Below, piece by piece: positions 28,181 to 51,300 of a stretch of 64,000 nt of DNA (the first letter of the stretch is position 1; the number at the start of each line of letters is the position of its first letter). Made by a program: the position numbers and the translations under genes. Where the stretch lies: assembly GCF_054482595.1 (NCBI RefSeq), contig NZ_CM137008.1. One strand, written 5' to 3'. The notes below the pieces were generated by a model. The model was not told where the DNA came from. It saw nothing but the letters and a program-made list of their open reading frames with translations, and ran no database searches.

Positions 28181-28341
28181 GCCGGATGCGGCGTGAACGC
28201 CTTATCCGGCCTACAAAAGCACGCAAACTCAATATATTGCAGAGATCATGTAGGCCTGATAAGCGTAGCGCATCAGGCAATTTAGCGTTTGAAACTGTTT
28301 GTCTGTTCCTTGCCGGATGCGACGTAAACGCCCCATCCGGC
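28181..28341. repeat. REP/BIME cluster (three REP copies) between chiP upstream region and glnS
   Basis: gccggatgcggcgtgaacgccttatccggcctac, caggcctgataagcgtagcgcatcagg, gccggatgcgacgtaaacgccccatccggc. Confidence 0.8.
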
Positions 28342-38842: not shown

Positions 38843-38919
38843 GGCTACGTAGCTCAGTTGGTTAGAGCACATCACTCATAATGATGGGGTCACAGGTTCG
38901 AATCCCGTCGTAGCCACCA
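38843..38919 (+). tRNA. metT: tRNA-Met (elongator, anticodon CAU)
   Basis: ggctacgtagctcagttggttagagcacatcactCATaatgatggggtcacaggttcgaatcccgtcgtagccacca; cloverleaf, CCA end. Confidence 0.93.
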
Positions 38920-38927
38920 TCTTTTTT

Positions 38928-39012
38928 GCGGGAGTGGCGAAATTGGTAGACGCACCAGATTTAGGTTCTGGCGCCGCAAGGTGTGCGAGTTCAAGTCTCG
39001 CCTCCCGCACCA
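38928..39012 (+). tRNA. leuW: tRNA-Leu (anticodon UAG), long variable arm
   Basis: gcgggagtggcgaaattggtagacgcaccagattTAGgttctgg...ctcccgcacca. Confidence 0.9.
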
Positions 39013-39035
39013 TTCACCAGAAAGCGTTGTACGGA

Positions 39036-39110
39036 TGGGGTATCGCCAAGCGGTAAGGCACCGGTTTTTGATACCGGCATTCCCTGGTTCGAATCCAGGT
39101 ACCCCAGCCA
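39036..39110 (+). tRNA. glnU: tRNA-Gln (anticodon UUG)
   Basis: tggggtatcgccaagcggtaaggcaccggtttTTGataccgg...accccagcca. Confidence 0.9.
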
Positions 39111-39144
39111 TCTTCTTCGAGTAAGCGGTTCACCGCCCGGTTAT

Positions 39145-39219
39145 TGGGGTATCGCCAAGCGGTAAGGCACCGGTTTTTGATACCGGCATTCCCTGGTTCG
39201 AATCCAGGTACCCCAGCCA
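39145..39219 (+). tRNA. glnW: tRNA-Gln (anticodon UUG), duplicate copy
   Basis: Same sequence as the preceding tRNA-Gln(UUG). Confidence 0.9.
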
Positions 39220-39234
39220 TCGAAGAAACAATCT

Positions 39235-39311
39235 GGCTACGTAGCTCAGTTGGTTAGAGCACATCACTCATAATGATGGGGTCACAGGTTCGAATCCCGT
39301 CGTAGCCACCA
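39235..39311 (+). tRNA. metU: tRNA-Met (elongator, CAU), duplicate copy
   Basis: Identical to the metT copy. Confidence 0.9.
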
Positions 39312-39359
39312 AATTCTGAATGTGTCGAATACGTTCGGCAAATTCAAAAACCAATTTGT

Positions 39360-39434
39360 TGGGGTATCGCCAAGCGGTAAGGCACCGGATTCTGATTCCG
39401 GCATTCCGAGGTTCGAATCCTCGTACCCCAGCCA
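39360..39434 (+). tRNA. glnV: tRNA-Gln (anticodon CUG, wild-type)
   Basis: ...caccggattCTGattccgg...; anticodon CUG, so not a supE allele. Confidence 0.9.
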
Positions 39435-39471
39435 ATTTATTCAAGACGCTTACATCGTAAGTGCGCCCAGT

Positions 39472-39546
39472 TGGGGTATCGCCAAGCGGTAAGGCACCGG
39501 ATTCTGATTCCGGCATTCCGAGGTTCGAATCCTCGTACCCCAGCCA
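39472..39546 (+). tRNA. glnX: tRNA-Gln (anticodon CUG), duplicate copy
   Basis: Same sequence as the glnV copy. Confidence 0.9.
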
Positions 39547-45094: not shown

Positions 45095-46633
45095 ATGGCT
45101 TTTGCCTCATTAATTGAACGCCAGCGCATTCGCCTGCTGCTGGCGTTATTATTCGGTGCCTGCGGAACGCTGGCCTTCTCTCCTTACGATGTCTGGCCTG
45201 CGGCGATTATTTCGCTGATGGGGCTTCAGGCGTTGACCTTTAACCGCCGTCCACTCCAGTCTGCCGCTATTGGCTTTTGCTGGGGATTTGGCCTCTTTGG
45301 CAGCGGTATTAACTGGGTCTATGTCAGCATCGCGACCTTTGGCGGGATGCCTGGCCCGGTTAACATCTTCCTGGTGGTGCTGCTGGCGGCGTATTTGTCG
45401 CTGTATACCGGACTGTTTGCTGGCGTGCTGTCGCGTCTGTGGCCGAAAACCACCTGGCTGCGCGTGGCGATTGCCGCCCCTGCTCTCTGGCAAGTGACCG
45501 AGTTTCTGCGTGGTTGGGTACTGACCGGCTTCCCGTGGTTACAGTTCGGCTATAGCCAGATTGATGGCCCGTTAAAAGGGCTGGCACCAATAATGGGCGT
45601 GGAAGCCATTAACTTCCTGCTGATGATGGTTAGCGGCCTGCTGGCACTGGCGTTAGTCAAACGCAACTGGCGTCCGCTGGTGGTGGCCGTCGTGCTGTTT
45701 GCCCTTCCCTTCCCGCTGCGTTACATCCAATGGTTTACCCCGCAACCGGAGAAAACCATTCAGGTTTCGATGGTTCAGGGCGATATTCCGCAATCACTGA
45801 AATGGGATGGAGATCAGCTTCTTAATACGCTGAAGATTTACTACAACGCAACGGCACCGCTGATGGGCAAATCATCGTTGATTATCTGGCCGGAGTCGGC
45901 GATAACCGATCTGGAAATTAATCAGCAACCGTTCCTCAAAGCACTGGACGGTGAGTTGCGCGATAAAGGGAGTACGCTGGTAACCGGGATTGTCGACGCG
46001 CGCCTCAATAAGCAGAACCGCTACGATACCTACAACACCATTATCACGCTGGGTAAAGGTGCACCGTACAGCTACGAATCAGCCGATCGCTATAACAAAA
46101 ACCATCTGGTGCCGTTTGGCGAGTTTGTCCCGCTGGAGTCGATTCTGCGTCCGTTAGCACCGTTCTTTGATCTGCCGATGTCGTCGTTCAGCCGTGGGCC
46201 ATATATCCAGCCGCCGCTGTCAGTAAACGGTATTGAGCTTACTGCGGCTATTTGCTACGAGATCATTCTCGGCGAGCAAGTGCGCGATAACTTCCGCCCG
46301 GATACCGACTATCTGCTGACTATCTCCAACGATGCGTGGTTTGGTAAGTCTATTGGTCCATGGCAGCACTTCCAGATGGCGCGAATGCGTGCGCTGGAGC
46401 TGGCGCGCCCACTGTTGCGCAGCACCAACAACGGCATTACGGCGGTGATTGGCCCGCAGGGTGAGATTCAGGCGATGATCCCGCAGTTCACCCGCGAGGT
46501 GTTAACCACTAACGTGACGCCGACCACCGGACTCACACCATACGCACGTACCGGCAACTGGCCGCTGTGGGTGCTGACGGCACTGTTTGGTTTTGCTGCT
46601 GTGTTGATGAGTCTGCGTCAGCGACGTAAATAA
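45095..46633 (+). CDS. lnt: Apolipoprotein N-acyltransferase
   Basis: 512 aa; N-terminal transmembrane region plus C-terminal nitrilase-like domain. Confidence 0.93.
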
Positions 46634-47029
46634 TCCCTTCTTATCGTGCCGGAATACATCCCATATTTCGGCACGCTCACCGGATGCGGCATCAGTGCAT
46701 TATCCGGATAACAATATTCTCCTATCCAACTTTGGCACATCTATTGCTTTGTTATACAAGGCAAAGCTTTAACCAGCATCAGTACAACCCGGTTGCACCG
46801 CAGCAATCCACCGGTAGCACCAAAAGAGTGCATTTTAAGAATTTTGCTTCGGAATGGTGCGGTGCACCTCGCAAAAACAAACAATAAAACATCAATATCT
46901 TTACATTTAACCAAACTAAATGTTACCTAACAGTCACAACACTGCACAATAAAGTTGCAGACGATAACAACACAAACACTCACAACGAGTATCCATGCGT
47001 TCTTAACGCAGAAGATAAAGGAGTTGGAT

Positions 47030-47938
47030 ATGCAATTACGTAAACCTGCCACAGCAATCCTGGCCCTGGCGCTTTCCGCAGGACTGGCACAGGCAGATGA
47101 CGCCGCCCCGGTAGCGGGCAGTACGCTGGACAAAATCGCCAAAAACGGCGTGATTGTCGTCGGTCACCGTGAATCTTCAGTACCTTTCTCTTATTACGAC
47201 AATCAGCAAAAAGTGGTGGGTTACTCGCAGGATTACTCCAACGCCATTGTTGAAGCAGTGAAAAAGAAACTCAACAAACCGGACTTGCAGGTGAAACTGA
47301 TTCCGATCACCTCACAAAACCGTATTCCTCTTCTGCAAAACGGCACTTTCGATTTTGAATGTGGTTCTACCACCAACAACGTCGAACGCCAAAAACAGGC
47401 GGCTTTCTCTGACACTATTTTCGTGGTCGGTACGCGCCTGTTGACCAAAAAGGGCGGCGATATCAAAGATTTTGCCGACCTGAAAGGCAAAGCCGTAGTC
47501 GTCACTTCCGGCACTACCTCTGAAGTTTTGCTCAACAAACTGAATGAAGAGCAAAAAATGAATATGCGCATCATCAGCGCCAAAGATCACGGTGACTCTT
47601 TCCGTACCCTGGAAAGCGGTCGTGCCGTTGCCTTTATGATGGATGATGCTCTGCTGGCCGGTGAACGTGCGAAAGCGAAGAAACCAGACAACTGGGATAT
47701 CGTCGGCAAGCCGCAGTCTCAGGAAGCCTATGGTTGCATGTTGCGTAAAGACGATCCGCAGTTCAAAAAGCTGATGGATGACACTATCGCTCAGGTGCAG
47801 ACCTCCGGTGAAGCGGAAAAATGGTTTGATAAATGGTTCAAAAATCCCATTCCGCCGAAAAACCTGAACATGAATTTCGAACTGTCAGACGAAATGAAAG
47901 CACTGTTCAAAGAACCGAATGACAAAGCACTGAACTAA
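47030..47938 (+). CDS. gltI: Glutamate/aspartate ABC transporter periplasmic binding protein
   Basis: 302 aa from MQLRKPATAILALALSAGLAQA (signal peptide); ATG at 47030. Confidence 0.93.
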   Translation: MQLRKPATAILALALSAGLAQADDAAPVAGSTLDKIAKNGVIVVGHRESSVPFSYYDNQQKVVGYSQDYSNAIVEAVKKKLNKPDLQVKLIPITSQNRIPLLQNGTFDFECGSTTNNVERQKQAAFSDTIFVVGTRLLTKKGGDIKDFADLKGKAVVVTSGTTSEVLLNKLNEEQKMNMRIISAKDHGDSFRTLESGRAVAFMMDDALLAGERAKAKKPDNWDIVGKPQSQEAYGCMLRKDDPQFKKLMDDTIAQVQTSGEAEKWFDKWFKNPIPPKNLNMNFELSDEMKALFKEPNDKALN

Positions 47939-47941
47939 TTA

Positions 47942-48095
47942 CAAGAACCAGGGGCGGAAATTCTAGCCCTCTCGATTGTTACGTAGCACGGACAGACTAT
48001 ACGCCTGATGGTCGTTCCCCATCGGGCCTGAAAACCGCAATACGCTGGGTAACAATCTTCGAGGGTAGCAGTTAACGCTGCTACCCTCTTTTTTC
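47942..48095 (+). ncRNA. sroC: SroC small RNA region (gltI-gltJ intergenic spacer) with 3' terminator hairpin
   Basis: 169-nt spacer ending in gagggtagcag ttaac gctgctaccctc followed by tttttt (48061-48095); the position matches where SroC is processed from the gltIJKL mRNA. Confidence 0.5.
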
Positions 48096-48107
48096 TGGAG
48101 TAGATTT

Positions 48108-48848
48108 ATGTCTATAGACTGGAACTGGGGTATTTTTTTACAACAAGCCCCGTTCGGCAACACCACCTATCTTGGTTGGATCTGGAGTGGTTTTCAGGTG
48201 ACGATCGCTTTGTCGATCTGCGCCTGGATTATCGCTTTCCTCGTCGGTTCATTTTTCGGCATTTTACGTACCGTTCCAAACCGTTTTCTCTCCGGTCTGG
48301 GTACGTTGTATGTCGAACTGTTCCGCAACGTGCCGTTGATTGTGCAATTCTTTACCTGGTATCTGGTGATCCCGGAGCTGTTGCCGGAGAAAATCGGCAT
48401 GTGGTTTAAGGCCGAGCTGGATCCCAATATTCAGTTTTTCCTTTCATCCATGCTCTGCCTGGGGCTGTTTACCGCCGCCCGTGTTTGCGAACAGGTACGC
48501 GCCGCGATTCAGTCGCTGCCGCGCGGGCAAAAAAATGCCGCGCTGGCTATGGGTCTGACGCTGCCGCAGGCTTACCGCTACGTACTGCTGCCTAATGCTT
48601 ATCGCGTTATCGTCCCGCCGATGACCTCAGAGATGATGAACCTGGTGAAAAACTCCGCCATCGCCTCGACCATCGGTCTGGTAGATATGGCAGCGCAGGC
48701 AGGTAAATTGCTCGACTACTCGGCTCACGCCTGGGAGTCGTTTACCGCCATTACGCTGGCGTATGTATTGATTAACGCTTTTATCATGCTGGTGATGACG
48801 CTGGTTGAACGTAAAGTTCGCCTGCCCGGCAACATGGGGGGCAAATAA
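48108..48848 (+). CDS. gltJ: Glutamate/aspartate ABC transporter permease
   Basis: 246 aa, polytopic membrane protein. Confidence 0.93.
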
Positions 48849-49522
48849 TGTACGAGTTTGACTGGAGTTCCATTGTTCCTTCCCTGCCATATCTGCTCGA
48901 CGGGCTGGTGATCACGCTGAAAATCACCGTCACGGCAGTCGTGATTGGTATTTTGTGGGGCACCATGCTGGCGGTGATGCGCTTGTCCAGCTTTGCGCCC
49001 GTAGCGTGGTTTGCCAAAGCCTACGTTAACGTATTCCGCTCGATTCCTTTAGTTATGGTTTTGCTGTGGTTTTACCTGATCGTGCCGGGTTTTCTGCAAA
49101 ACGTGCTGGGATTATCACCAAAAAATGATATCCGTTTAATTTCGGCGATGGTGGCGTTTTCGATGTTTGAAGCGGCCTACTATTCAGAGATTATCCGTGC
49201 CGGTATTCAAAGTATTTCTCGTGGTCAGTCGAGCGCCGCGCTGGCGTTGGGAATGACTCACTGGCAGACGATGAAACTGATTATTCTGCCGCAGGCGTTC
49301 CGCGCGATGGTGCCGCTGCTGCTCACTCAGGGCATCGTACTGTTCCAGGATACCTCGCTGGTGTATGTGTTATCTCTGGCCGATTTCTTCCGTACCGCCT
49401 CAACCATTGGTGAGCGTGATGGCACGCAGGTTGAGATGATCCTGTTTGCCGGATTTGTTTATTTCGTTATTAGCCTTAGCGCGTCGTTGTTGGTCAGCTA
49501 CTTGAAAAGAAGGACAGCATAA
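48848..49522 (+). CDS. gltK: Glutamate/aspartate ABC transporter permease
   Basis: 224 aa, polytopic membrane protein; start overlaps the gltJ stop. Confidence 0.93.
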
Positions 49523-50247
49523 TGATTACCCTGAAAAATGTTTCAAAATGGTATGGTCACTTTCAGGTGCTGACCGACTGCTCAACCGAAGTGAAAAAAG
49601 GCGAAGTGGTGGTGGTTTGCGGCCCGTCTGGTTCCGGCAAATCAACGCTGATTAAAACCGTCAACGGCCTCGAACCAGTGCAGCAAGGTGAAATCACCGT
49701 CGATGGTATCGTGGTTAACGACAAGAAAACCGATCTGGCAAAGCTGCGTTCTCGCGTCGGGATGGTATTCCAACATTTCGAGCTGTTCCCTCATCTGTCG
49801 ATTATCGAAAACCTGACCCTGGCGCAGGTGAAAGTGCTTAAACGCGATAAAGCACCGGCTCGTGAAAAAGCATTGAAATTGCTGGAGCGCGTGGGACTTT
49901 CCGCACATGCCAATAAATTTCCGGCGCAGCTTTCCGGCGGCCAGCAGCAGCGTGTGGCAATTGCTCGCGCATTGTGTATGGATCCTATTGCGATGCTGTT
50001 CGACGAACCCACATCGGCACTAGACCCGGAGATGATCAACGAAGTACTGGACGTGATGGTGGAACTGGCGAACGAGGGGATGACCATGATGGTGGTGACC
50101 CACGAAATGGGCTTTGCCCGTAAAGTGGCGAATCGGGTGATCTTTATGGATGAGGGTAAAATTGTTGAAGACTCGCCGAAAGATGCGTTCTTCGATGATC
50201 CGAAATCGGACCGCGCAAAAGACTTCCTCGCGAAAATCCTGCATTAA
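49522..50247 (+). CDS. gltL: Glutamate/aspartate ABC transporter ATP-binding protein
   Basis: 241 aa; Walker [10 protein letters not shown] and ABC signature LSGGQQQR. Confidence 0.95.
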
Positions 50248-50364
50248 TCACTCTGGCGCGCATACCCAATTGCGCGCCATCTCACGCTTTATCGTTTCGC
50301 CCCTCGTATCTGTTACATCCTGGCGTTACCCTTGTCGCAAAGAAGCACACAACAAGGAGCAACA

Positions 50365-51300
50365 ATGGCACTGCCAATTCTGTTAGATTGCGACCCAGGT
50401 CATGATGACGCTATCGCAATAGTTCTCGCCCTCGCCTCACCAGAGCTTGATGTCAAAGCAATTACGTCTTCCGCCGGAAACCAGACACCAGAAAAAACCT
50501 TACGCAATGTTCTGCGTATGCTGACCTTGCTTAATCGCACCGATATTCCGGTGGCAGGCGGCGCGGTAAAACCGTTAATGCGTGAGTTGATTATCGCGGA
50601 CAATGTGCACGGCGAAAGCGGTCTCGACGGCCCGGCATTACCGGAACCGACGTTTGCACCGCAAAAGTGTACGGCGGTGGAGCTGATGGCGAAAACGCTA
50701 CGTGAAAGTGCGGAACCTGTCACCATTGTTTCTACCGGACCGCAAACTAACGTTGCTTTGCTGCTCAATAGCCATCCGGAACTGCATAGCAAAATTGCCC
50801 GTATCGTGATTATGGGCGGCGCAATGGGGCTGGGTAACTGGACGCCTGCGGCTGAATTTAATATTTACGTTGACCCGGAAGCGGCAGAAATTGTCTTCCA
50901 GTCAGGGATCCCGGTGGTGATGGCCGGTCTGGATGTTACTCACAAAGCGCAAATCCACGTTGAGGACACCGAGCGTTTCCGCGCGATTGGTAACCCGGTT
51001 TCAACCATTGTTGCCGAACTGCTGGATTTCTTCCTCGAATATCATAAAGACGAAAAATGGGGCTTTGTCGGCGCACCGCTGCATGACCCATGCACCATCG
51101 CCTGGCTGTTGAAACCCGAGTTGTTTACCACTGTTGAGCGCTGGGTTGGCGTGGAAACACAGGGGAAATATACCCAGGGGATGACGGTTGTTGATTATTA
51201 TTATCTGACTGGCAATAAACCGAATGCCACTGTAATGGTCGATGTTGATCGTCAGGGCTTTGTTGATTTACTGGCTGATCGTCTGAAATTTTACGCTTAA
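50365..51300 (+). CDS. rihA: Pyrimidine-specific ribonucleoside hydrolase RihA
   Basis: 311 aa from [16 protein letters not shown] (nucleoside hydrolase DxDxxxDD motif); ATG at 50365. Confidence 0.93.

Follow-up and report, generated by a model that had tools for sequence, protein, structure and literature searches.

The stretch of DNA analyzed here (64,000 nucleotides of contig NZ_CM137008.1 in RefSeq assembly GCF_054482595.1, hereafter the window) almost certainly encodes, at positions 47934-48096 of the + strand, SroC, the small RNA that associates with Hfq and originates from the 3′ end of the gltI transcript. A scan of the whole window with Rfam 15 placed family RF00369 (sroC) at exactly these positions and along the full length of the model (1-163/163), scoring 170.8 bits where the gathering threshold is 45 (E = 7e-36). 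The 163-nt sequence agrees with the ncRNA sroC of E. coli K-12 (b4763) at 162 of the 163 bases. RF00369 is the only family above threshold at this locus, and a permissive Rfam scan did not reveal another family of weight. In this study, the call is based on sequence identity, structure, covariation, gene position, terminator anatomy, and the intact pairing sites for the sRNA GcvB, and nothing was found in the sequence evidence that speaks against the identity of the RNA. The original prediction that the spacer between gltI and gltJ represents the SroC sponge RNA is therefore borne out by the full-length family match, by the alignment with the K-12 gene, and by the presence of both GcvB-pairing sites. 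The RNA is an already known one at its known place, and the window does not provide new biology in this respect.

The boundaries of the RNA differ slightly from those of the spacer. SroC is read from the coding strand in the interval that separates the stop codon of gltI from the start codon of gltJ; its 5′ end is located 5 nt inside gltI (47934), and its 3′ end falls within the U-tract of a terminator (48096). The same arrangement is found in the curated record of K-12 MG1655, in which sroC (b4763) occupies 686681-686843 between gltJ and gltI and overlaps gltI by 5 nt. The range originally proposed for the RNA, 47939-48107, contains most of SroC; however, it misses the first 5 nt (47934-47938) and includes 11 nt (48097-48107) that belong to the translation-initiation region of gltJ and are outside SroC.

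The genes in this part of the window occur in the order lnt, gltI, gltJ, gltK, gltL, and rihA, with the + strand coding throughout, and lnt (45095-46633) is the upstream neighbor of gltI. The parental coding sequence of SroC, gltI, occupies 47030-47938 of the + strand according to its match with NF008063 and the RefSeq annotation. Its product (47030-47935, 302 aa) aligns with NF008063, the NCBIfam model of the glutamate/aspartate substrate-binding protein, over 1-302/302 with 666.9 bits. The mechanically called open reading frame begins with a TTG at 46955. Because the product that starts at the ATG at 47030 covers the entire model, this ATG, and not the TTG, is the real start of gltI. The gltK product matches the GltK equivalog model, and E. 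coli records of RefSeq with 100% identity to the window across the gltI-gltJ region carry annotations for both gltI and gltJ. The stop codon of gltI (TAA) is at 47936-47938 and the ATG of gltJ is at 48108-48110; therefore, the spacer extends from 47939 to 48107 and measures 169 nt, precisely as had been predicted. The initiation region of gltJ (48097-48110, + strand), which is identified by sequence, by the open reading frame, and by the identical RefSeq records, consists of the ribosome-binding site GGAG (48097-48100) followed after 7 nt by the start codon of the gltJ reading frame (48108-48848, + strand). No open reading frame of at least 20 aa occurs on the + strand within the spacer. On the − strand, a mechanically called GTG reading frame of 67 aa (47963-48166) is antisense to SroC and to the start of gltJ. 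This frame is without annotation in both of the RefSeq records examined, the curated K-12 record and NZ_AP018488.1, and nothing suggests that it is a gene.

The predicted fold of SroC is considerably more stable than expected for its composition. The minimum free energy (MFE) of the 163 nt is -64.1 kcal/mol (z = -5.86), none of the 200 shuffled sequences is as stable, and the MFE structure coincides with the centroid structure. A single-stranded 5′ leader of 17 nt is followed by stem-loop 1 (SL1; 47951-47970, + strand), which is supported by the MFE fold, the K-12 alignment, and the Rfam structure line. Stem-loop 2 (SL2; 47974-48057, + strand) is an extended, interrupted hairpin in which both GcvB contact sites reside, and it is supported by the MFE fold, covariation, and RNAalifold. 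The third element, identified by a terminator scan, is a Rho-independent terminator (48061-48096, + strand) composed of a 12-bp stem at 48061-48088, six T residues at 48089-48094, and a final CT. The stem contains 7 G-C pairs among its 12 pairs, is closed by the loop TAAC, holds a perfect inverted repeat of 11 nt, and has a free energy of -21.3 kcal/mol when folded alone. Among the 10 terminator-like sites detected between 46600 and 50500, this hairpin ranks highest in stem pairs and in G-C pairs. The claim of a strong hairpin with a U-tract immediately before the ribosome-binding site of gltJ thus proved accurate, since the stem, the T6 run, and the CT lead directly into GGAG. The terminator at 48061-48096 is predicted to form the 3′ end of SroC.

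The length of the terminator stem is not uniform among lineages. Compared with the loci L004-L065 from other species, the hairpin at 48061-48088 contains an additional CAG...CTG plus loop, and a similar extension is found in Kluyvera. The stem measures 12 bp (-21.3 kcal/mol) in the window, whereas it measures 9 bp (approximately -13.2 kcal/mol) in Citrobacter, Salmonella, Klebsiella, Enterobacter, and others. The longer stem of Escherichia, in comparison with Salmonella and Citrobacter, is due to 9 nt inserted in the region of the loop, and the lengthening of the hairpin in Escherichia and Kluyvera accounts for the poor Rfam alignment across the terminator. Judging from these stem lengths, read-through into gltJKL could differ among the lineages.

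In Salmonella, Miyakoshi, Chao and Vogel (2015, PMC4474525) demonstrated by structure probing and compensatory mutation that SroC pairs with GcvB via two sites of 7-8 nt. One site is located in the internal bulge of SL2 and the other, 14 nt away, at its tip, and the two touch distant parts of GcvB. The compensatory pairs are C63/G160 and C87/G14, and point mutations in both sites abolish the destabilization of GcvB and leave the stability of SroC unaffected (PMC4474525). Both sites can be recognized in the window by complementarity. The first, GGACAGAC (47990-47997, + strand; SroC nt 57-64), lies in the internal bulge of SL2 and is perfectly complementary to nt 156-163 of K-12 GcvB (region R3 in SL4), with a duplex energy of -15.3 kcal/mol. 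The second, TCGTTCC, or UCGUUCC in the RNA (48012-48018, + strand; SroC nt 79-85), forms the 7-nt apical loop of SL2 and is perfectly complementary to nt 13-19 of K-12 GcvB (SL1), with a duplex energy of -10.9 kcal/mol. The spacing between GGACAGAC and TCGTTCC is exactly 14 nt, as in the published RNA (PMC4474525). Moreover, the register places C47993 opposite G160 of GcvB and C48017 opposite G14, and these two residues correspond to the sites of the published mutations C63 and C87 with a constant offset of 3 nt in the Salmonella SroC numbering. The duplex energies refer to restricted windows; whole-molecule RNAduplex predictions of SroC, or of the gltI 5′ UTR, against GcvB are over-extended and meaningless.

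Short complementarity by itself constitutes weak evidence for pairing, because a second match of 8 nt, equally long, occurs by chance between SroC and the terminator stem of GcvB, and because complementary 7-mers between the two RNAs are only modestly in excess (6 compared with 1.9 in shuffled sequences, p ~0.04). The two sites carry weight because they coincide with the sites that have been mapped experimentally. The gene gcvB is located outside the 64-kb window, and we infer GcvB as the partner from further genomes of E. coli. Of 5426 complete genomes, 5425 contain gcvB, and NZ_AP018488.1, which matches the window at 100% identity across the gltI-gltJ region, has a gcvB that is 100% identical to that of K-12.

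GcvB also represses gltI itself via a C/A-rich site in the 5′ UTR (PMC4474525). In the window, a C/A-rich element in the gltI 5′ UTR (46955-46987, + strand) is complementary to the G/U-rich region R1 of GcvB (approximately nt 63-94), with a perfect run of 10 nt, several 7-mers, and a duplex energy of -36.2 kcal/mol. This element is the putative site of GcvB repression of gltI, which would close a feed-forward loop. A similar second CA-rich copy, AACAGTCACAAC, occurs at 46929-46940. According to a review, SroC additionally sponges the sRNA MgrR and represses fliE and flhBAE. Our search for pairing between SroC and MgrR returned runs of at least 6 nt that were short or confined to the MgrR terminator stem, and none of them could be interpreted.

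A scan for the two-site pattern, in which one genome per species was used (298 Gb) and a gap of 12-16 nt was allowed, identified 64 loci, and the gap was exactly 14 nt in all 64. In 63 of these loci the pattern belongs to an Enterobacteriaceae species and is located directly downstream of a gltI homologue, with gltJ next wherever the sequence extends that far. The genera include Escherichia, Salmonella, Citrobacter, Klebsiella, Raoultella, Enterobacter, Kluyvera, Kosakonia, Pluralibacter, Phytobacter, Yokenella, Lelliottia, Trabulsiella, and others. The remaining locus (L021:8226-8388, − strand), on a contig labelled as an uncultured Prevotella MAG, was rejected as a chance match; its flanks are unlike SroC or gltI/gltJ, and about one chance match is expected for this pattern over 298 Gb.

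The alignment of relatives consists of 61 distinct sequences that were chosen by the presence of both pairing sites; the sites are therefore invariant in this alignment as a consequence of the selection, and no conclusion on their conservation can be drawn from it. The evidence is instead provided by the stems. Over the 61 sequences, 89.8% of the cells of the named structure are paired, compared with 38-49% in slid controls; 20 pairs are changed on both sides, and the observed score was not attained in any of 500 shuffles. In the apical stem of SL2, 97.1% of the cells over the 61 sequences are paired, and both partners have changed in 5 of the 9 pairs. Across at least 15 genera, the stem between and around the sites thus covaries, the sequence of the loop is retained, and the position within the spacer is fixed. 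RNAalifold independently recovered the apical SL2 stem and the terminator. When applied to the MAFFT alignment, however, it did not recover SL1 or the basal helices of SL2 and proposed a small non-covarying helix instead; we consider the pair counts for the named structure to be the better test.

Several relatives have insertions in the spacer. Approximately 120 additional nt are located between the gltI stop and SL1 in L022, L024, L039, L062, and L065, and in L013, L014, and L061 additional sequence follows SL2 and displaces or replaces the usual terminator. The species concerned belong to some Citrobacter, Phytobacter, Pluralibacter, Yokenella, and related groups. The length and the 3′ end of SroC may differ in such species.

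Within E. coli, the sole difference from K-12 inside SroC is a transition, T47964 in place of C, which converts a G-C pair of SL1 into G.U. The Rfam structure and the MFE fold both retain this pair, and the substitution is thus predicted to preserve the structure. The exact 41-nt SL1 allele with T47964 occurs in 537 of the 5426 complete E. coli genomes, O157:H7 strains among them, and it is SL1 that varies among the SroC sequences of Escherichia. The positions 47927-47963 are identical to K-12, and just upstream in gltI there is one synonymous difference. The gltI-gltJ region is present in 5421 of the 5426 genomes, and the spacer is absent from the other 5 according to megablast. The segment 47985-48096 (112 nt), which comprises most of SL2, both pairing sites, and the terminator, reaches an identity of 99% or more in 5297 of the 5421 genomes. 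Two copies of the spacer in this genome collection are located on plasmids. Upstream of gltI, K-12 MG1655 carries an IS5D element at the position that matches 46927-46930 (CTAA), 100 nt before the gltI ATG, whereas the lnt-gltI intergenic region of the window is uninterrupted and without IS5D; the window therefore does not come from MG1655.

The tip of SL2 resembles a repetitive extragenic palindrome (REP). At 48003-48029 (+ strand), the sequence GCCTGATG-N10-ATCGGGCCT constitutes a REP-like palindromic unit, as judged from its likeness to a REP of the same window. That REP, at 28252-28278 on the − strand, reads GCCTGATG-CGCTACGCTT-ATCAGGCCT and shares its arms and an interior length of 10 nt with the SL2 tip. 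Because the SL2 tip shares the arms and the layout of the REP, the GcvB-binding loop lies inside a REP-like palindrome. This observation agrees with EcoCyc, which, according to a 2025 paper (PMC12306157), lists SroC as REP-containing. The REP consensus is an imperfect palindrome with the arms GCC[G/T]GATG ... ATC[C/A]GGCCTAC that occurs in many copies per genome. The SL2 tip matches the REP of the window in arms and spacing but differs in its interior and in its 3′ tail (CCTGAA, not CCTAC). REP elements are also found after binding-protein genes in ABC operons. Unlike these elements, the SL2 tip has an interior, GTCGTTCCCC, that lacks REP character and contains the GcvB site, and it is present as a single copy within a larger conserved fold. 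In other genera, the tip stem has diverged from the REP sequence by covariation, and the orthologues are not REP-like. The GcvB-binding loop may have arisen by exaptation of a REP element such as those that follow binding-protein genes.

The REPs at 2711-2745 and 28181-28212, both on the + strand, were included in the comparison. The tail of the former is overlapped by the 3′ end of a match with the sRNA ES036 (CssrF; Rfam, 2740-2782, − strand), which is above threshold with 73.4 bits and may represent a REP-associated RNA. A sub-threshold match (21.9 bits against 59.5) with naRNA4 (CssrE), a REP-derived nucleoid-associated RNA, is located at 46648-46709 (− strand) and covers the hairpins just past the lnt stop, where inverted repeats occur at 46645-46675. 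Elsewhere in the window, Rfam identifies a cluster of seven tRNA genes (38843-39543, + strand), of which two pairs and one more have identical scores, consistent with a repeated tRNA operon of the Met/Leu/Gln type.

The termination, the RNase E processing, the binding of Hfq, the decay of GcvB, and the physiology described below are taken from published experiments and not from this analysis. A monocistronic gltI RNA arises at a leaky Rho-independent terminator, past which gltJKL is still transcribed (PMC4474525). The 5′ end of SroC carries a monophosphate and does not coincide with a transcription start site, and its formation needs RNase E and an upstream leader of at least 20 nt (PMC4474525). 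The decay of GcvB requires Hfq, RNase E, and both pairing sites (PMC4474525). Published work in E. coli and Salmonella describes a stable SroC of approximately 160 nt, with a half-life of more than 16 min in E. coli. In the same species, expression of SroC shortens GcvB's half-life from more than 16 min to approximately 3.8 min, and GcvB-SroC chimeras reach approximately 70% of the GcvB reads of RIL-seq in stationary phase. Delta-sroC strains have also been used in E. coli. The main text of a paper on 3′-end mapping in E. coli (PMC7815308) does not mention sroC or gltI.

Applied to the window, this scheme predicts that transcription from the gltIJKL promoter would stop in part at 48061-48096 and produce the monocistronic gltI RNA, and that read-through would supply gltJKL. 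RNase E, guided by Hfq and acting from a 5′-monophosphate end, would trim the gltI RNA to the stable SroC of 163 nt. The SL2 bulge (GGACAGAC) and the apical loop (UCGUUCC) would then pair with the two distant parts of GcvB, this pairing would expose GcvB to RNase E, and the level of GcvB would fall. With less GcvB, its many target mRNAs for amino-acid and peptide transporters would be relieved of repression, and gltI would be among them via the element at 46955-46987.

At first glance, the spacer might serve as a mere attenuator or mRNA stabilizer that keeps the periplasmic binding protein GltI above the membrane components GltJKL, with the RNA fragment as an inert by-product of decay. A strong terminator directly precedes the gltJ ribosome-binding site, the SL2 tip is REP-like, and REPs stabilize upstream mRNA in other binding-protein operons; the literature agrees, moreover, that the terminator sets the ratio of gltI to gltJKL (PMC4474525). 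However, a role in stoichiometry is compatible with the role of SroC but is no substitute for it. The two GcvB sites are undamaged, the intervening stem covaries around a retained loop in at least 15 genera, and the published site mutations described above separate the loss of GcvB destabilization from the stability of SroC. In Salmonella, furthermore, a mutant of both sites reportedly loses the control of GcvB with the levels of GltI and GltJKL unchanged. We therefore regard an inert fragment as highly improbable. It is even harder to believe that SroC is not a processing product but an independent gene with its own promoter in the 3′ end of gltI. The 3′-UTR sRNAs DapZ and MicL do arise in this manner, but the monophosphate at the published 5′ end, which is not a start site, and the requirement for RNase E and a leader of at least 20 nt argue against it, and a consensus scan, in itself a weak argument, found 0 sigma-70-like sites on the + strand in 46600-50500.

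A different proposal would leave SroC in place and add to it: the spacer could also be a regulated terminator, in which a cis element or a trans factor tunes both the output of SroC and the expression of gltJKL. The authors of PMC4474525 raised this possibility. Invariant or near-invariant blocks, for example CCCTCTCGATTG and AATCTTCGAGGGTAG, exist outside the GcvB contact sites, and conserved non-contact blocks are located at 47969-47978 (CTCTCGATTG) and 48054-48063 (AATCTTCGAG). The strength of the terminator also varies by lineage, from the longer form in Escherichia (12 bp, -21.3 kcal/mol; Kluyvera similar) to the shorter one (9 bp, -13.2 kcal/mol). However, the conserved blocks belong mostly to the base of SL2 and to the terminator, where structural constraint alone would suffice, and their invariant pairs do not give a covariation signal either way. 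An alternative antiterminator fold is not evident, the MFE and centroid structures being the same, and the Rfam scan did not match a riboswitch or leader family; the sole sub-threshold overlap, a terminator-like match with a Listeria sRNA (25.1 bits against 45), was rejected. We consider it unlikely, if less so than the two preceding proposals, that termination between gltI and gltJ is under regulation and not a constant leak and that the lengthened stem in Escherichia and Kluyvera is part of such control. If this were true, the choice between SroC release and read-through into gltJKL would be set at this point, and the level of GcvB would be set with it.

The preferred reading, in which the locus encodes SroC as a processed sponge RNA, matters in the window for annotation only. 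The original prediction that coding-sequence annotation overlooks the RNA holds for NZ_AP018488.1, the pipeline-annotated (PGAP) E. coli record that we checked, but not for the curated K-12 record, in which sroC is annotated. Because NZ_AP018488.1 lists no RNA gene in the spacer, a view restricted to coding sequences misses a functional regulator. SroC is a textbook case of crosstalk between mRNAs via an RNA sponge, and its target, GcvB, governs one of the largest sRNA regulons in enteric bacteria.

Compared with the known representatives of SroC (RF00369, K-12 b4763, and the Salmonella RNA of PMC4474525), the RNA of the window shares the locus, the length of 163 nt, the fold of SL1, long SL2, and terminator, the two GcvB sites 14 nt apart, and the 5′ end inside gltI. 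The difference from the SroC of Salmonella and Citrobacter is the longer terminator stem of Escherichia, 12 bp against 9 bp. Compared with CpxQ, SdhX, NarS, and OppZ, SroC is likewise released by RNase E from the 3′ end of an mRNA and bound by Hfq, and it likewise shares the terminator of its host transcript, carries a 5′ monophosphate, and is stable. However, SroC originates from a terminator inside an operon and not at the operon end, and its main target is an sRNA (GcvB, and MgrR according to the review) and not an mRNA.
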